From a virus: a DNA stretch of 64,000 nt. The notes below the pieces were generated by a model. That model had not been told where the DNA came from. It did no database searches and saw only the letters and a program-made list of their open reading frames with translations. The stretch lies in the IMG/VR virus record IMGVR_UViG_3300015263_000653, positions 25,857 to 89,856 of that record. One strand, written 5' to 3'. Position 1 is the first letter of the stretch, and the number at the start of each line of letters is the position of its first letter. This document shows, in pieces, positions 233 through 38,338 of this stretch. Both the position numbers and the translations under genes were made by a program.

Positions 233-547
233 ATGTTGACAGACGAACAAAAGAAAGAGCGTCGGTTTCTCAGTCACAACATTGAACTGGGACAACGGGG
301 CCGCAAGCGGATGCCGTTCAGCGAAGTCTGTATGCACATGCGGATCGCTGGCAAGTACATGGATTTCGAGTTGCTCAACAAGGAGTATCCCGGAGTCCAG
401 TTGTACGAAGACGGTCGCCCGTTCTCTGGCTCGATCACGACCGGCGAAGCTGGCATCTTCCATGACTCGGAGCGGGGATATTACTACTACCCCCACGAGT
501 ACAACGCCGAGAACATGGACGACGCCGCCGACAACCCGCCCAGTTGA
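233..547 (+). CDS. Hypothetical cassette protein (104 aa)
   Basis: TTTTGGAG RBS; stop TGA begins repeat 545. Confidence 0.85.
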   Translation: MLTDEQKKERRFLSHNIELGQRGRKRMPFSEVCMHMRIAGKYMDFELLNKEYPGVQLYEDGRPFSGSITTGEAGIFHDSERGYYYYPHEYNAENMDDAADNPPS

Positions 548-562
548 CACCCGCTTGAACCT

Positions 563-593
563 CACCTCAGTAACTCAAAGAGTTACTGAGGTG
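563..593. other. Perfect 14-bp hairpin CACCTCAGTAACTC-AAA-GAGTTACTGAGGTG
   Basis: Inverted repeat read directly; sister copy at 5328-5358. Confidence 0.9.
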
Positions 594-626
594 GACAACC
601 CCGAACCCATTTGGAGGAACACCCAC

Positions 627-2868: not shown

Positions 2869-3372
2869 ATGAAAACCGTCACACGTCAAAGCCAGTGGGG
2901 GACTGGCAACATGGTTGTCGAGATCAGCGATGGTGGGATTGACTACTGCAACCCCGATGCACTGTCCGCAAAGTATCGGGGCGAGTTCGAGGAATTTGCC
3001 GATCCTCGTGAGGCAGTGGAAACCGCTATCACCATCGCTCAACAGTGGCAGGCGGATGCTCCCGATAAGACCATCCTGATTGACCACGGTGGCACCGGTG
3101 GAATGACCATGCCATTCGATGGGATGGAACTGGGAGAGGAAACCTACACCGCTCTGAGGGAGTGGGCAAACAGCCAGTATGAGGAACTGGAGAAATGTTG
3201 CCGCTGTGGCGACATCCTCGGCAAAGAGCGATGGACACACCCGGAACTCTGCGAAGAGGAAAAGTTCTGCTCTGAGAACTGCTGTGACAACGCCTACTGG
3301 GACATGATGAAAGAACTCGAAGAGGAGGAGGAGGAGGAGGACGAGGATGAAGAAGTAGAGGACGACGAGTAA
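2869..3372 (+). CDS. Acidic protein with C-terminal Zn-finger-like motif and poly-E/D tail (167 aa)
   Basis: CCRCG...FCSENCC, EEEEEEEDEDEEVEDDE; stop begins repeat 3370. Confidence 0.85.
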   Translation: MKTVTRQSQWGTGNMVVEISDGGIDYCNPDALSAKYRGEFEEFADPREAVETAITIAQQWQADAPDKTILIDHGGTGGMTMPFDGMELGEETYTALREWANSQYEELEKCCRCGDILGKERWTHPELCEEEKFCSENCCDNAYWDMMKELEEEEEEEDEDEEVEDDE

Positions 3373-3440: not shown

Positions 3441-3647
3441 ATGCCAAAGGCGCAATCGCAGTACAAGCCTATCGGCCAGTATCGGTTTCCCGCAATGGGC
3501 GGGCCGACTGTGACCTATGGGCAGAAACCCTACTACGGCAGGCGGATGCAGTATTTGCCAGCCGTGAGAACGACAATGCTTCAAGTCCAAGTGATGGTTC
3601 TCGGCTCGTTGATGTGGATCAACGTGAGGCCCGAGGATCTGAAGTAA
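3441..3647 (+). CDS. Small hypothetical cassette protein (68 aa)
   Basis: GGAG RBS after hairpin; stop begins repeat 3645. Confidence 0.75.
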   Translation: MPKAQSQYKPIGQYRFPAMGGPTVTYGQKPYYGRRMQYLPAVRTTMLQVQVMVLGSLMWINVRPEDLK

Positions 3648-3697
3648 CACCCGCTTGGGTGATGTAACATCAGCAACCCCCGTAAGGGAGAAGAACA

Positions 3698-3847
3698 GTG
3701 CATTTCGACAAACGCAAGGCCAAACGTGCCGACAAACGACGCCGAGACAAGGAGATCGAGCGTTGCAAGAGGGAGCACGGGAATCGGGGTGAAAAGAACA
3801 CTCGGAAGCGTCCCCGATTCGACGAGTTTGACAGGGAAGCGGCGTAA
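3698..3847 (+). CDS. Small basic protein (49 aa, ends DREAA)
   Basis: Translated by hand from GTG after AAGGGAG; stop begins repeat 3845. Confidence 0.65.
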   Translation: MHFDKRKAKRADKRRRDKEIERCKREHGNRGEKNTRKRPRFDEFDREAA

Positions 3848-3896
3848 CACCCGCTTGGGGACTGTCAATCAACAATCCAACTTTTGGAATGAAGCC

Positions 3897-4082
3897 ATGA
3901 AGGTCGCCACGCATCGTTACCCCCGGACTGCTCAGGAGTCTCGGGAAGTCATCACCGACGTTGATTTCAGCGTCAAGGCCCGCAAGCGGAAGTTGCCCAA
4001 CTGCTGGGACGACAAGCCACGGGGAGACCACGATCACCGCTCGTGGAAGCGTCATCGCCGCAACCAGTGGAAGGCAGCCTAA
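3897..4082 (+). CDS. Small basic protein (61 aa, ends QWKAA)
   Basis: RYPRT, LPNCWDD, SWKRHRR; stop begins repeat 4080. Confidence 0.8.
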   Translation: MKVATHRYPRTAQESREVITDVDFSVKARKRKLPNCWDDKPRGDHDHRSWKRHRRNQWKAA

Positions 4083-4132
4083 CACCCGCTTGTAGGCTGT
4101 ACAACACACAACACCTTTTCAGGAGTCGAGCG

Positions 4133-4504
4133 ATGAACTTCGCCGTCAACACCAAAGACAGCATCTTGGCAACCTTGCGGGATGCGATTGATTTGCAGGA
4201 TTACATGGTCAAGGCCGACCACATTCTGGATGCCCTGATGACGACGGCAGGCGTCTGGACTGAGTGTGGCTATGCCTACAAGGCGACTGAGATCGCCAAT
4301 ATCATCGGCCAGCGGTTCACCGATGAGATCGGCAATTGCCATCACCACAAGACCCACGCCAAGATCGACACCATGCGGATCAAGGCGTACACCGTCGCCC
4401 GGTTCTTCTGTGAACAGCAGTACGAGTATCGGGAAGCCCAGCAAGCGGAGATCGACGCCATGTTGGGCATCGAACACAAGACCGATATGGAGCTTGCGAG
4501 CTAA
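4133..4504 (+). CDS. Hypothetical cassette protein (123 aa)
   Basis: AGGAG RBS; stop begins repeat 4502. Confidence 0.85.
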   Translation: MNFAVNTKDSILATLRDAIDLQDYMVKADHILDALMTTAGVWTECGYAYKATEIANIIGQRFTDEIGNCHHHKTHAKIDTMRIKAYTVARFFCEQQYEYREAQQAEIDAMLGIEHKTDMELAS

Positions 4505-4514
4505 CACCCGCTTG

Positions 4515-4585
4515 GAAGGTGTTGAGAGGGTGCTGTCTGGAGGCGACAGCCAAGTGTCACCCAGTCTCAGGTGAAACAGCCCGAT
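4515..4585 (+). ncRNA. Short non-coding cassette with nested stems
   Basis: TGAGA/TCTCA, GGGTG/CACCC and GCTGTC/GACAGC pairings; no ORF. Confidence 0.45.
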
Positions 4586-4616
4586 CAACACCCGCTTGTA
4601 AAGTGTCACCGGTGGC

Positions 4617-4824
4617 AAGGACGACCGGGGAGAACACTGAGACAACCGATTAGCCCACCGCTACCTACTGTCTTTACCGAAACTGCTGTGACAGCCGCCA
4701 GTCTGATGACGGGTTTACCGTACCTTGGCCGAGGCGTTGTCCACTGGAAACGGCGACAGCAAAAGTAGGCAGAGTGGACGGTGTGCGAATCGAGTCTCAG
4801 TGAAGTATCCCCGGTCCTCTCCTT
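4617..4824 (+). ncRNA. ~210-nt rod-like structured RNA cassette (6S-like architecture)
   Basis: Nested pairings AAGGA/TCCTT, GACCGGGGA/TCCCCGGTC, CACTGAGAC/GTCTCAGTG, CGATT/AATCG, CCAC/GTGG, CCTAC/GTAGG, TGCTGT/ACAGCA, GCCG/CGGC, CCAGT/ACTGG. Confidence 0.7.
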
Positions 4825-4873
4825 CAACACCCGCTTGTACAACGTAACAACAACACCTTCTGAGGGCCACAAG

Positions 4874-5014
4874 ATGAATCAGCGTCGGATCTACCAACTC
4901 ATGACGGAGTTGGGCAAGGAACTGGAGTCGTACAATCCGCCCGGCAATGTCAAGTTCAAGGCGGCAATCGCTGGCCTGCGAGCGGCCATCAAGAGTTTGC
5001 GAGTGTTCTTCTAA
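4874..5014 (+). CDS. Small hypothetical cassette protein (46 aa)
   Basis: GAGG RBS; stop begins repeat 5012. Confidence 0.75.
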   Translation: MNQRRIYQLMTELGKELESYNPPGNVKFKAAIAGLRAAIKSLRVFF

Positions 5015-5065
5015 CACCCGCTTGGACAACGTAACAACACAACCCACTTCTCAGGAGTTCACACG

Positions 5066-5299
5066 ATGAACCACAATCCCGGCGTCAACCGCATGAAGAA
5101 CATCGCCCGCAATGGCTTCCTGTCCTCGCTGGTCGCCAAGGCCCACGCCGGGCAGCGGCCCGACATCACCCTCAAGCCGAAGGGCGTCACCTGTGAGGAA
5201 CTGGAGAAGTACCTCAAGGCCAACAACTGCGGCTGGACCAAGCACGCTGGCGGACGGTATGTCATCGGCTCCCTGCGACCGGCCCGCAAGGCAGCGTAA
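5066..5299 (+). CDS. Small basic cassette protein (77 aa, ends ARKAA)
   Basis: AGGAG RBS; stop begins repeat 5297. Confidence 0.8.
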   Translation: MNHNPGVNRMKNIARNGFLSSLVAKAHAGQRPDITLKPKGVTCEELEKYLKANNCGWTKHAGGRYVIGSLRPARKAA

Positions 5300-5309
5300 C
5301 ACCCGCTTG

Positions 5310-5375
5310 GAGAGTGTCAGCCAACAACCCCTCAGTTACTCTTTGAGTAACTGAGGGGGAGCGGCTGGCCGGGAC
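5310..5375 (+). other. Non-coding cassette containing a perfect 14-bp hairpin (5328-5358)
   Basis: CCCCTCAGTTACTC-TTT-GAGTAACTGAGGGG inside an outer GTCAGCC/GGCTGGC stem. Confidence 0.8.
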
Positions 5376-5428
5376 CAACACCCGCTTGGACCGTGTTAAG
5401 ACCACAACACCTTTTTGGAGATCGAGTC

Positions 5429-6001
5429 ATGTTGAAGTTGTTTGTTCTGGAGTGCAGCACCGTCGAGGAACTGGAATCGGCAATGTCCCGCATGGGGCTG
5501 AGCAAGGTCAAGCCCGAACTGGCTGTGCTGGTCACGCCCGGTGGCAACGTCGAGGAGCCGACGCCAACGCCGCCTGCCCCCAAGGCTGACACCCGCTTGG
5601 AAAGTGTTGAGACGGAAACGACTCAACCGCCAGCCCCCAAGGCTGACGCCAAGCCGCCCCGCAAGTCGAAGCGGAAGGGTGGCGGGGGTGGCTTCCGCAA
5701 GGCAGCCCCCAAGACGTTCACCGATTTGTCGAAGCTGGAAGGCATCGGCATCTATCACAAGGCCGATGGCACGCAGAAGGTTGTGGGCATCATCGGACGG
5801 AGCGAAGGCAAGGGCGGCAACGCTGGTCACGAGATTCTGTGGCTCGGCAACGTCGAGCGGAAGGACGGCGAGATTGTGTGCTGGTCCTTCGCCAACGGCG
5901 ACCCGTGGACGCACAACGCCACCCGCTTCCCGGAAACGATCACCGATCTGGCCCCGTACAGCCCGGACTACGCCGAACTGCTGGTCGAGATGGTGGGCTA
6001 A
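5429..6001 (+). CDS. Hypothetical protein (190 aa) with Pro/Lys linker that reads through an internal array repeat
   Basis: TTTTTGGAG RBS; repeat 5587 is translated as ADTRLESV; stop begins repeat 5999. Confidence 0.8.
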   Translation: MLKLFVLECSTVEELESAMSRMGLSKVKPELAVLVTPGGNVEEPTPTPPAPKADTRLESVETETTQPPAPKADAKPPRKSKRKGGGGGFRKAAPKTFTDLSKLEGIGIYHKADGTQKVVGIIGRSEGKGGNAGHEILWLGNVERKDGEIVCWSFANGDPWTHNATRFPETITDLAPYSPDYAELLVEMVG

Positions 6002-6152: not shown

Positions 6153-6611
6153 ATGCTGCAAGAGTTGAAAGGGATCGTCGAGGGCATGGGCAAGAGCAAA
6201 GCCAAGCCCGAACTGGTCGCTCTGATCGAGCGAGCCGAGACGCAAGGCCAAGCCGCTGATCCGAAGCGATGGGCCTATGCGGGAGTCACCTTGATGGCCG
6301 TGATGAGTGCTGGACTCAACGGCTACGCCAACGCACAGCACGCAACTGTGCCGATGGCAGGGTGGGCGATGGGGATTGCAATCCCCGCCATCGTCCTGAT
6401 CCTCGCCCGTGTGGCAGGGATCAACTGGAAGGCAGGACGCAAGGCGATGGCGAAGGCCGGGGCTGGCGTCGGCATCGGATTGCTTGTCTTGTCAGTGTGG
6501 CACTGTGCTACTAGCATCAGCCTGCTGACTGGCAGCCATGTGCTACTCGCACTGCCGATGGCACTGGCTATTGATGCGGGGCTGGTGTACTGCGAGTGCA
6601 ACACATTGTAA
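6153..6611 (+). CDS. Multi-pass membrane protein (152 aa)
   Basis: About four hydrophobic segments; stop begins last repeat 6609. Confidence 0.85.
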   Translation: MLQELKGIVEGMGKSKAKPELVALIERAETQGQAADPKRWAYAGVTLMAVMSAGLNGYANAQHATVPMAGWAMGIAIPAIVLILARVAGINWKAGRKAMAKAGAGVGIGLLVLSVWHCATSISLLTGSHVLLALPMALAIDAGLVYCECNTL

Positions 6612-6869
6612 CACCCGCTTGTATTATGTAAGAGGGACACATGACTCACTCGCTGAATCGCAGCGAGTGAGTGTGTTGCAAAAATTGTAATTGAGAAACT
6701 CTCAATTTTTTTTGTGCCATGTGGCCCATGGGGGAGGCACCCCCGCCGCTATGTCACCCCCCTCTCTTATATTAACAAGAAGAAATTTTTCAGACGCCTG
6801 CGCAGCAAAAACCGAAACTCCGAAACTTCTTTGGAGTGAGGCTATATCTCAGAAAAGGAGAAGAAAGCG

Positions 6870-7061: not shown

Positions 7062-7372
7062 GCCGTCTCGACGAGAATCTCGATGATCTCGTCCATCATG
7101 AATTCGAGTTTGTCGCCGCAAGTCCAAGCGGTGGCGACGACGGGATCGTTATTCAGTTCGCCCAAGAGATCCTCTTGCTCACCGACGCCCTGAACCATGA
7201 CCCACATGTATTCTCGGCGATCTCTGGCGGCAAGAAACGCCAGCTTCACAAAAGCCCCGATCAAGTCTTCGGGCTTTAGATTGTGCTCTGCGATCAACCT
7301 CTGCGTTGTGGCCTTCCGTTCCTCGTTACAGCCTTCGCAGACGTGGAAGATGTTGGCAATTGGCTCCGTCAT
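7058..7372 (-). CDS. DUF2314/YegJ-like protein
   Basis: EYMWV...GELNNDP...GD..F...I motif pattern. Confidence 0.6.
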   Translation of the reverse strand: MTEPIANIFHVCEGCNEERKATTQRLIAEHNLKPEDLIGAFVKLAFLAARDRREYMWVMVQGVGEQEDLLGELNNDPVVATAWTCGDKLEFMMDEIIEILVETA

Positions 7373-7611
7373 GACTCAAGGACTTCCTTTCTGCCCTTTT
7401 CGGTCAGGAATCCTTTCATGAAGGTTTCCTGCTCAAGTTCTACTTCTTCGACCCGCAACCATCCCTGATCGATGGCATAGTTCCATCCGTTGCGGAGGAA
7501 CTCATTGCGAGCGGTGTGTCCGTCGAATCGGCAGTAAGTCAAATCGAGGTTCTGTCCTGTGAACAGACGCTTGAAGGACTGCCGATATTCTTCTTCGAGG
7601 TTCTCGCTCAT
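7369..7611 (-). CDS. Hypothetical protein
   Basis: Translationally coupled ORF, start MSENLEE. Confidence 0.7.
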   Translation of the reverse strand: MSENLEEEYRQSFKRLFTGQNLDLTYCRFDGHTARNEFLRNGWNYAIDQGWLRVEEVELEQETFMKGFLTEKGRKEVLES

Positions 7612-7847
7612 ACTACCCTCAACTCTGGTTTTTCTTCTTGGTAGCCCCAGTGTATCTTCAACAGGCTCTCGGGAACATCCTGCCCGACAGATTTCTTGGC
7701 TTCGAAAATCATCTTCGACATTTCGGGCATCATCATGGGCGCATAGACGCTGGTAACTTTGCCGCAGTTGGGACACCAAGTGATCCCATCAGCCAGCGAA
7801 GTCATTGGAACTTTGCAGTGTCGGCACTCCCATTCACAGCCCAGCAT
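7608..7847 (-). CDS. Zinc-ribbon protein
   Basis: CRHC...WCPNCG. Confidence 0.7.
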   Translation of the reverse strand: MLGCEWECRHCKVPMTSLADGITWCPNCGKVTSVYAPMMMPEMSKMIFEAKKSVGQDVPESLLKIHWGYQEEKPELRVV

Positions 7848-13046: not shown

Positions 13047-13266
13047 CGTCGTCTTTCTTGTCTGGTGGTCTTCTGACGGAGGACTGTGCGAGTCCTGCTT
13101 GGAGTTGACCGAGTGTGACTTGTTCCCCGGCCTTGAGTGACACGATGTCGCCGTTACATTCTGGGCAGCCGCCTTTGGTGCTGAACCAGTAGTTGGGGAT
13201 CGGCATCTGCCATTCGTGATTGTTCTGACACTTGGCGTGCAGAGTGGGGAACACAGGTTCGTTCAT
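13030..13266 (-). CDS. Zinc-ribbon protein
   Basis: CQNNHEW...GCPECN. Confidence 0.7.
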   Translation of the reverse strand: MNEPVFPTLHAKCQNNHEWQMPIPNYWFSTKGGCPECNGDIVSLKAGEQVTLGQLQAGLAQSSVRRPPDKKDDDGNHP

Positions 13267-19648: not shown

Positions 19649-19810
19649 TCAGTCCAAAAGTTGGAACAGTGTCACGCACCCAGCGAGGAAGTTCAGGGCT
19701 CCAAGGCCGAGCAAAAGGCTTTGGAGCCATTTTTGTTGGATCTTCTTCTGATAGAAGTAGATCCAATAAGCCCAGCCGAAGTTCACGATGATGACAATGA
19801 TGGGGAGCAT
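19649..19810 (-). CDS. Small two-TM membrane protein (53 aa)
   Basis: Translated by hand: MLPIIVIIVNFGWAYW...LAGCVTLFQLLD. Confidence 0.55.
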   Translation of the reverse strand: MLPIIVIIVNFGWAYWIYFYQKKIQQKWLQSLLLGLGALNFLAGCVTLFQLLD

Positions 19811-20009
19811 CCTACTGCCCTTCTAATATGTTTCAAAATCTCCTCAGTTTCGGAGATGGTTAATGGTTTGCCGAAGAACACCATCAGTTCGCCCTTGACA
19901 TGGGCGTAGTGACATTTGATTTCTCCGTTTGCGTCACAAACTTGGAAAGTCCGCTGATCGGAACCCAGACCACACAGGCTGGTGCTAGGGGTGATGCGTA
20001 GCACGAGAG

Positions 20010-36835: not shown

Positions 36836-38338
36836 TCAAACAGGTCGCATGTATTCCATGTGTTTGCGGAAGTTGTCGAGTTCGAGGTTTCTCTTTCTCT
36901 CCTCGATTCCATCCTTGTCCTGCTGGCCCGTGAACGGGTCGATCAGATCGAGGAACGCATCGTCGATGGTTTCTTGCCCATCTTCGCTCGACTTGTAGAC
37001 CTTCACTCTGGGGCTCTTGCTGAAGCCGAGGAAGGCGTCAACCACGCTACCGTCGAGGCCACCGAGTTTGGTTCCCCACTCTCGAAGTTTTCGGCCCGAA
37101 ATACCGCTGCTCATCATGCCGTTGGTGAGATCCATGAGCGTGTTACCGTCCATGTTCTCATTCATTCCAAGGCTCTTGATGAGGAAGGCGATCTTCTTCA
37201 TGTCCTTCTGATCCAAACCAAGATCTTCCAACATCTCAGGTGGGTTGCCACGCAAGGCCCAAGCGAGCGGCATGTGCTTGTCGCCCATCTCGGAAAGTTC
37301 TTTGGGCAGATCGCCGTCGATCATCTTGCCGGGGAACAAGGAATCCAGCAGGCCGAAGTCCTTGAACAGCTTCAGGAACTTTCTGGTATCTGTGTCGTCC
37401 TTGTCCATGCACTTCTTGAATTCGCCCATCTTGGTCTTGGAGTCCAGCTTAGACAGAAGTTCTGGGCCAAGTTTGGCAATGGTTTCTCTGTCTTCAACTG
37501 GAACCTTCTTCGAATCACCATAGCCGTTCATGAACCGCATATAACGCATGAGGCGTTTTGGGTCTTCCTTGAACTTCTTCTTCATGTCGCCGATAGGAAC
37601 AACCTTGCCCGCTGCCATGTGATGGATTCCACCGTGAAAGTCAGTCAGTTCTTTGTTGGGGCCGTTGTCATTACTCAGAAGGATATACATCCCGTTCATC
37701 GTAAAGTCACGGCTGTTGGAATCATCACCTTGGGTTCCGGGTTCTCTGTCCCCATCAACGCCACGAGGTGACTTGGTGAAGCATTCGAGTTCGAATTCGT
37801 CTTCATTGACCTTGAGTCCGAAGACAAAGGGTCGGCCATTCTTATTGGCCTGTTGCACCCAGAACAACTGGTTAGCACCTTCCTTCTTATTCGGATTTGC
37901 ATGGGCACTCTTAGAAGATGAGCCATCGTTCTTGATGAACGAGAATCCGTTCTGCTTCAGAAGGTGATACACTTCGTCTGGGGAAGCATTGGTCGCCAGT
38001 TCGATATTTCTGGCTTTGCGGCCTGCGAGATAGTCTCGGACAGCACCACCGGCGAGGTACAATTTCTTGCCAGAGATCTTCACTGGCTTGTCTTCACCGC
38101 TGGCGTCATCTTTGGACCAACCCCAGTTGCCGCCTGATTTGAAAGCACGCACGATGGGTGCGAGGTTCTTGTTTTTTCCGTAGTGTTCTGACTTCGGATC
38201 GTCTGAGACATTGAAGGGTTCGTAGTCATTGCCATCGCCAAGTGTGACCTTGGCACTCAATGCACCACTATCGGCACTCTTGTCGTGCTCGTTGCCTTCT
38301 CTCAGATTTCTGAATTGATTGAATGATTTGAAACTCAT
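36836..38338 (-). CDS. CCA-adding/poly(A) polymerase-family nucleotidyltransferase, divergent active site
   Basis: LAGGAVRDYL, NIELATNASP (DxD position reads NxE), SRDFTMN, EDPKRLMRYMRF. Confidence 0.85.
   Translation of the reverse strand: MSFKSFNQFRNLREGNEHDKSADSGALSAKVTLGDGNDYEPFNVSDDPKSEHYGKNKNLAPIVRAFKSGGNWGWSKDDASGEDKPVKISGKKLYLAGGAVRDYLAGRKARNIELATNASPDEVYHLLKQNGFSFIKNDGSSSKSAHANPNKKEGANQLFWVQQANKNGRPFVFGLKVNEDEFELECFTKSPRGVDGDREPGTQGDDSNSRDFTMNGMYILLSNDNGPNKELTDFHGGIHHMAAGKVVPIGDMKKKFKEDPKRLMRYMRFMNGYGDSKKVPVEDRETIAKLGPELLSKLDSKTKMGEFKKCMDKDDTDTRKFLKLFKDFGLLDSLFPGKMIDGDLPKELSEMGDKHMPLAWALRGNPPEMLEDLGLDQKDMKKIAFLIKSLGMNENMDGNTLMDLTNGMMSSGISGRKLREWGTKLGGLDGSVVDAFLGFSKSPRVKVYKSSEDGQETIDDAFLDLIDPFTGQQDKDGIEERKRNLELDNFRKHMEYMRPV

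Follow-up and report, generated by a model that had tools for sequence, protein, structure and literature searches.

The DNA analysed here, which we call the window, is a stretch of 64 kb corresponding to bases 25857-89856 of an 89,856-bp virus record in IMG/VR. CheckV puts the completeness of this contig at 18%, which implies that its source is a very large phage, and the sequencing runs with the best coverage of the stretch are marine sediment metagenomes. PHROG matches further along the window indicate a tailed phage: they comprise a tape measure protein, a baseplate wedge, a virion protein and a tRNA nucleotidyltransferase. The last of these is a 500-aa protein encoded on the minus strand at 36836-38338, which matches a phage tRNA nucleotidyltransferase family (phrog_2244, E 1.8e-23) in a window that carries no tRNA gene.

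The first 32.5 kb of the contig hold 104 copies of the motif ACACCCGCTTG (counted with no more than one mismatch), all of them on one strand and none on the other, and within the 64-kb window a 12-mer of this motif occurs 26 times against 0.36 expected. The motif punctuates an early-type array of about 100 tiny genes, all on one strand. The usual unit opens with TAA or TGA, a stop codon fused with the motif, followed by five variable bases and a TGT box, and continues with an A/C-rich leader, the sequence GGAG, an ATG some 36-41 nt past the motif and a short ORF whose stop codon falls in the next motif. According to position-frequency tables, T/C-G-T occupies +16 to +18, counted from the motif start, in this contig and likewise in 340 junctions of other metagenomes.

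Unit #95 of the array (4588-4826, motif to motif) is occupied in its entirety by a predicted rod-shaped RNA. The upstream motif ACACCCGCTTG (4588-4598, plus strand, as are all features of this unit and its neighbours) is preceded by CA, where TA or TG of a stop codon is usual, because the preceding unit is non-coding. A short leader (4599-4616) contains the second junction box (five bases, then TGT at 4604-4606) and then CACCGGTGGC. The rod itself (4617-4824) comprises a basal stem, a series of collinear helices, an asymmetric loop and a three-way junction, and its last pair lies 2 nt ahead of the next motif (4827-4837), itself preceded by CA. The preceding unit, #94 (4504-4587, 84 nt), has neither an ORF nor a significant fold (z 0.08); by inspection, it has the strings GTCTCAG and GTGTCACC in common with the rod unit. 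Upstream of it lies the gene c93 (4133-4504), which ends 113 nt ahead of the rod and encodes a 123-aa acidic, all-helical protein of a family that we call P0001, and further upstream lies c86 (2102-2434), which encodes a protein of 110 aa. Neither a sigma-70-like promoter nor an intrinsic terminator was found flanking the rod, so that its expression must depend on the signals of the array.

The plus strand of 4617-4824 folds with a minimum free energy (MFE) of -93.5 kcal/mol, compared with a mean of -64.8 (sd 4.6) for 200 dinucleotide shuffles, none of which was as stable (z -6.23). Ranked by GC-corrected MFE among 3448 overlapping 208-nt windows of the 89.9-kb contig, the rod comes seventh, and it is the fourth distinct locus. 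End-to-end folding is also seen in several more RNA-only units of this array, at z values of -4.4 to -7.6. The MFE structure contains 73 pairs (45 GC, 23 AU and 5 GU) at a mean pair probability of 0.87. An earlier note on this DNA had described a rod of about 210 nt that folds the whole cassette end to end through at least nine collinear nested helices, and the MFE and z value bear this out, with ten collinear helices in the MFE structure. The basal stem, of 23 bp, is made of three helices (4617-21/4820-24, 4623-31/4808-16 and 4635-43/4794-4802) and is continued by five further collinear helices (4647-51/4788-92, 4653-54/4785-86, 4656-64/4774-83, 4668-73/4767-72 and 4676-77/4765-66) and a closing helix (4684-89/4756-61). 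The branched apex that had been claimed is likewise there, as a three-way junction from which a long apical arm (4690-4741) and a mini-hairpin, CUG-GAAA-CGG (4744-4753), emerge. The large asymmetric internal loop is present as well, but is smaller than had been claimed, with CUGUCU paired to AGGCAG in the MFE structure; it consists of UU/AC/CGAAAC (4674-4683, 10 nt including a weak 2-bp step) facing AAA (4762-4764). Inspection of the rod loops revealed neither a K-turn nor complementarity to the array motif. The reverse strand folds almost equally well by MFE (-91.1, z -5.8), as a mostly Watson-Crick hairpin would lead one to expect, but with a centroid of only -64.8 against -89.2 on the plus strand. 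As both strands fold nearly alike, the strand of the rod is assigned from the orientation of the array and not from the fold.

Most other array units have a Shine-Dalgarno (SD) sequence and an ATG, and stop in the next motif; in the rod unit, an SD sequence with ATG is lacking, and none of the frames terminates within the next motif. Open frames of 65 aa (plus strand), 40 aa (plus strand) and 88 aa (minus strand) do cross the rod, so that a protein might be the real product, with the 65-aa ORF at 4571-4768 as the named candidate. This ORF begins with a GTG in the previous unit, however, lacks an SD sequence and runs across the motif. A frame-specific codon score trained on 56 array ORFs gave these real ORFs a mean log-odds of +0.53 (minimum +0.11) and off-frame controls -0.70, and the three ORFs over the rod scored -0.32 (the 65-aa ORF), -0.12 and -0.36, all below every real ORF. 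Six candidate ORFs over the rod were sought in a collection of 15 billion proteins and none was present, compared with all three of the flanking genes tested. The rod stretch is thus very probably non-coding, as the description of the unit as an RNA-only cassette had held, and there is next to no chance that the 65-aa ORF or another frame over the rod is the true product.

The rod matches no catalogued RNA. A cmscan search of the whole window against all 4227 families of Rfam 15 gave no match at the gathering score, in keeping with the earlier note, which had left the RNA without a family. SRP RNA, tmRNA, tRNA, known ribozymes, abiF and other antitoxin RNAs all lack a match by Rfam 15 or ARAGORN, the latter finding neither a tRNA nor a tmRNA in the window. 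At the relaxed threshold of E <= 10, the region 4450-5450 returned only chance matches to mir-7911, mir-4662 and PtaRNA1 (E 5-6.5), and no 6S RNA, SRP RNA or ribozyme; none of the models of these three kinds, for which a search by Infernal cmscan had been suggested, recognised the rod.

A resemblance to 6S RNA had been proposed for this cassette. 6S RNA is about 150-200 nt long, has a closing stem that joins both ends, binds the RNA polymerase holoenzyme and templates a product RNA; its central bubble, between long irregular helices, has about 10 or more unpaired nucleotides on each strand. With its 208 nt, its rod shape and its ends paired by the helices of 4617-43/4794-4824, the RNA described here has some likeness to 6S RNA (Rfam RF00013 and related families), and by analogy it might mimic an open promoter, bind the host RNA polymerase holoenzyme and template short product RNAs. 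The absence of any match to the 6S models of Rfam 15, even at E <= 10, speaks against this, as does the structure: of the internal loops, the largest comprises 10 nt of the 5' strand, with a 2-bp step inside, but only 3 nt of the 3' strand, so that the rod has no two-sided central bubble, and its apex is branched instead of ending in a terminal loop. Rods found in the same kind of slot in related arrays (see below) also lack a central bubble. We consider a 6S-type RNA highly improbable, and the tempting but unsupported label of a 6S mimic is removed.

Metagenomes were scanned for two array motifs lying 224-254 nt apart, and 62 stretches from many samples carry such a motif pair, most of them with several more copies on the same strand. 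In six of the 62, representing three lineages, we found rod RNAs of about 195 nt (195-200), here defined as family A, at L180:3226-3422(-), L169:4145-4341(+), L160:1161-1357(-), L135:1003-1199(+), L125:803-999(+) and L141:1951-2147(+), L141 being identical to L125. RNAalifold gives family A a consensus of 56 pairs, with 95.7% of cells paired and compensatory changes in 13 of the 56. None of 500 shuffles reached the observed level of covariation, and sliding the partners left only 0-1 such pairs. Several pairs alternate between G-U and A-U, or between U-A and U-G, and two loops are invariant, an internal AUUCAU/UAA and an apical AAAGGCCAC. Family A has no match in Rfam. Its covarying helices indicate that the rod RNAs in such slots are genuine RNA genes.

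Family A resembles the window rod in several respects. Each family-A rod fills its own unit between two ACACCCGCTTG motifs, with its 3' end abutting the next motif; it is of similar size, likewise forms a rod, whose basal stem measures about 24 bp, and lies 0-2 cassettes from homologues of P0001 and c86. The family-A loci, with 6-18 copies of the motif each, encode homologues of just two of the roughly 70 array proteins of the contig, c86 and c93 (P0001), and match the contig in nothing else. The P0001 homologues (30-38% identity) lie one cassette from the family-A rod, upstream of it in L135 and L125 and downstream in L169, L180 and L160, and a c86 homologue is found directly upstream of the rod in the latter three. 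The window rod has the same setting, in a unit of its own and 0-2 cassettes from a P0001-family gene, and in all, P0001-family genes occur within 1-2 cassettes of a rod RNA in four lineages.

In sequence and in detailed structure, the two differ. The family-A apex is unbranched and its loops are invariant, whereas the window rod has a three-way junction and other loops; both AUUCAU/UAA and AAAGGCCAC are absent from it. A family-A covariance model (CM; R1) scored 4.5 bits on 4618-4824 of the plus strand (E 1.7 over 8 kb) and 5.4 bits on the reverse strand, and a family-A nhmmer profile gave no match on the window rod. In the other direction, a single-sequence CM of the window rod (R2) had as its best match in 363 kb the family-A rod of L135 (17 bits, E 0.021). 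With filters off, R2 scores family-A rods about equally on both strands, which means that the match reflects rod shape only. Homology drawn from the L135 match together with shared short strings was accordingly dropped, in view of this strand control and of the nhmmer profile, and no significant sequence similarity or strand-specific CM similarity was found between the window rod and family A. Because family A adjoins homologues of the same two flanking proteins, the window rod is nonetheless, judged by gene order, probably its positional counterpart, and may be either a very diverged family-A orthologue or a different RNA filling the same place.

No homologue of the window rod was detected by blastn, nhmmer or CM search in 363 kb of related arrays, three IMG/VR records and 30 genome loci, and there is thus no covariation for the window rod. 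A blastn search of phage GenBank records gave no match, and the contig contains no paralogue. The IMG/VR relative that carries the same motif (G001) has no rod; nor do two further IMG/VR records with a motif pair, one of which (G004) is a tandem repeat and not an array. A scan of viral contigs for a family-A motif yielded chance matches only, and a scan of genome contigs yielded mostly unrelated repeats, with no rod and no P0001 homologue.

The P0001 family comprises 47 clusters in a database of 5.8 billion sequences, none of them named and none with a Pfam domain. Its conserved motifs are Y-x-Y-K-A-x-E-I-A and H-x-K-T. The AlphaFold model of P0001 is a confident helical bundle (pLDDT 87), for which no match was found in the PDB at E <= 0.001, and comparison with Pfam and PHROG gave sub-threshold matches only. 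By inspection of its sequence P0001 is acidic, and hence a classical RNA binder is not suggested. Homologues were located at L135:456-788, L125:143-499, L169:4903-5259, L180:2329-2673(-), L160:60-416(-) and L124:777-1091. The 5' leader of each contains a hairpin, GTGTGAGAGAC..GTCTCTCACAC, with CCTGAACCGGAGTC after it. Closer relatives of P0001, with 52-68% identity, occur in public assemblies (P0025, P0035, P0045 and P0050), and it is their contigs that would be most likely to carry rods closer to the window rod and thereby to provide covariation. A search of IMG/VR yielded no relative of P0001.

Some further observations touch on the host. Array-like units that start with GACACCCGCTTG are present in two contigs binned as Planctomycetota, L223 (Schlesneria sp., JAYVOX010000741.1) and L201 (JAYWHX010000112.1), a weak hint at the host phylum. 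The genomes searched, from a set of 401 Planctomycetota, contained no homologue of the P0001 family. Another Planctomycetota MAG contig, L209 (CAZMSZ010000199.1), carries at 7230-7740 on the minus strand a different tandem element, in which (G/A)ACACCCGCTTGTCGCACGTGCGAC recurs every 37-81 nt; this element of a bacterial bin contains the 11-mer of the phage motif joined to a palindrome.

The array with its boundary motif most closely resembles, among described architectures, the PeSL (promoter-early stem-loop) cassettes of T4-type phages, which combine sigma-70-type early promoters with terminator hairpins (PMC2839356, PMC4122927); the comparison applies to the surrounding array and not to the rod RNA. 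Both contain numerous small accessory genes, with a conserved regulatory motif at the boundary of each, and in both the cassettes vary among related phages. The boundary here differs, however, in being an 11-mer with a TGT box that overlaps the stop codon, without a sigma-70 consensus, and in that some units are RNA only. In the literature, the array motif was encountered only as primers. The element ACACCCGCTTG-N5-TGT is somewhat better than evenly placed to be a phage-specific promoter, read by a phage-specific polymerase or with a phage-specific factor; an RNA processing site is a lesser possibility, and roles other than these two take up the rest of the odds. A search for a T7-like RNA polymerase (PF00940) found no match in this contig (G000) or in G001, with a control that likewise matched nowhere.

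Several kinds of hairpin recur in the array. Short RNA-only units contain one with a conserved palindrome core, (C)AGTAACTC-N3/4-GAGTTACT(G), which occurs five times in the contig (G000 23879-23942, 24216-24280 and 24689-24748; window 547-618 and 5299-5377) and, with slightly variant cores, in the distant arrays L157, L146, L147 and L135. This hairpin makes a second conserved signal of the array and could serve as a terminator or a protein site. Four coding units (G000 3235-3300, 4766-4840, 13107-13180 and 19798-19870) have, ahead of the SD sequence, a leader hairpin CCGGGGAG-loop-CTCCCCGG followed by TCCAAAA(A/T)TTGTA(C/T)T. The string CAAAAATTGTA of these leaders is also found just past the last motif of the array (window 6672-6690), and CCGGGGAGAACA is common to the second helix of the rod and unit #50. 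At the end of the array (window 6611-6715), the last motif is succeeded by a 12-bp hairpin (CACTCACTCGCT..AGCGAGTGAGTG) and then by an AT-rich hairpin that runs into T8 (ATTGAGAAACTCTCAATTTTTTTT). The AT-rich hairpin with its T8 resembles an intrinsic terminator, which the terminator scan left unflagged because it has too few G-C pairs.

Four sequencing runs were compared with window positions 3600-5700. One library, from another study, is labelled METATRANSCRIPTOMIC, in a run flagged 'RNA? (probably DNA)' whose contigs show neither ends nor strand; it contains a 169-nt contig, at a depth of 4.9 and with 0 differences, that corresponds to 4647-4815 and so lies wholly within the rod, with the remainder of the 2.1-kb stretch uncovered. 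A 169-nt piece placed at random would fall within the 208-nt rod with a probability of about 2%, and we regard this contig as a weak hint of a discrete, abundant RNA. None of the runs listed with the stretch is on record as RNA. Runs from soil (X3), gut (X4) and sludge (X5) yielded identical pieces of 151-256 nt at depths of 2-3, located elsewhere in the stretch than the rod, which looks more like carry-over between libraries than true occurrence.

Taken together, the rod is most likely a new phage small RNA in its own array slot of a huge sediment phage, and we put at roughly 60% the probability that it is a genuine free structured small RNA, not 6S. An alternative in which the rod acts in cis, as a long hairpin for processing or stability (for instance a site for RNase III, a barrier to exonucleases or an insulator), would have it shape the polycistronic transcript of the array and the expression of neighbouring cassettes, such as P0001 upstream or a 46-aa gene downstream. 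The early mRNAs of phage T7 are separated by cleavage at RNase III hairpins, a textbook precedent for such a function. The lack of a promoter or terminator of its own would fit this role, and many cassettes carry shorter hairpins right after the motif; the CCGGGGAG-loop-CTCCCCGG hairpin is present in units #5, #28 and #50, and 12 nt are shared with the second helix of the rod. A length of 208 nt, a three-way junction and a GNRA hairpin nevertheless go far beyond the needs of a cleavage site or barrier, and the internal and apical loops of the family-A rod are invariant among related phages. Moreover, the order of the family-A rod and the P0001 homologue differs between lineages, the rod being upstream in some and downstream in others, which is at odds with a constant cis effect on a single neighbour. 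We judge a cis-acting element unlikely.

The conserved, sequence-specific loops of family A bear equally on the suggestion, made by analogy, that the rod could serve as a generic double-stranded RNA decoy, sequestering a dsRNA-binding nuclease of the host or a defence protein that senses RNA, much as adenovirus VA RNA blocks PKR. Such loops favour a specific partner over generic dsRNA recognition, and cmscan matched no defence-related RNA family. The 73 bp arranged as a rod, with breaks in the helix every 5-9 bp that could limit cleavage, and the position in an early-type array of small accessory genes are what one might expect of a decoy, and the proposal is improbable but not far-fetched. 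There is little to recommend a feature of the DNA itself, that is, a cruciform or foldback involved in replication or recombination, or a MITE-like insertion, that merely resembles an RNA gene. Both strands do fold almost equally well; the rod is, however, single-copy in the contig and fits exactly between two motifs, the G-U/A-U and U-A/U-G alternating pairs of family A hold only in RNA of the array strand, and the contig that covers nothing but the rod comes from a library labelled metatranscriptomic. A DNA-level origin of the fold is accordingly very unlikely.

For the free small RNA that we favour, the following course of events can be envisaged. The rod would be transcribed on the plus strand along with the array, the motif acting as a phage-specific promoter or processing signal. 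Its near-perfect 23-bp basal stem, which pairs the first and last bases of the rod, could be a shield against exonucleases or an RNase III-type excision stem, and through such protection or excision a discrete RNA of about 210 nt would accumulate early in infection. Most likely, this RNA would then act as a sponge or a scaffold, with its internal loops and branched apex contacting a protein, for which the co-located P0001-family protein and a host protein are candidates. That the partner is one specific protein is, within this small-RNA reading, a possibility rather than an expectation.

Few phage-encoded structured RNAs have been described and their functions are mostly unknown. The stable RNAs of phage T4, species 1 and 2, lie in a tRNA gene cluster and are excised by tRNA-processing enzymes. 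Like these and other structured RNAs of phages, which are 120-200 nt long, highly structured and made alongside small genes, the rod is phage-encoded; unlike T4 species 1 and 2, it lies in an array of protein-gene cassettes, in a window without tRNA. Adenovirus VA RNA I, which acts as a decoy for a protein, offers a functional analogy only. It too is a viral rod, some 160 nt in length, in which a terminal stem joins the two ends, the central domain is branched and there is an apical stem, but it is a Pol III transcript of a eukaryotic virus, and no homology to the window rod was found.

The repeated linkage of a rod RNA to P0001 in four lineages that share almost nothing else nearby singles out a concrete, testable pair. 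We tentatively suggest, as a doubtful but attractive idea, that a two-part module is made up of the rod RNA together with the P0001-family protein and that the window rod and family A are very divergent versions of one RNA class. If this is true, the module would be either a ribonucleoprotein particle or a counter-defence in which RNA and protein are paired; the rod and P0001 would be kept as a pair by selection amid the exchange of every other array cassette; and one RNA class would have spread through a clade of huge phages in many habitats. The rod stands as a unit of its own in a modular array, each unit of which presumably has one early function, and this suggests that huge phages deploy folded RNAs on a par with small proteins.
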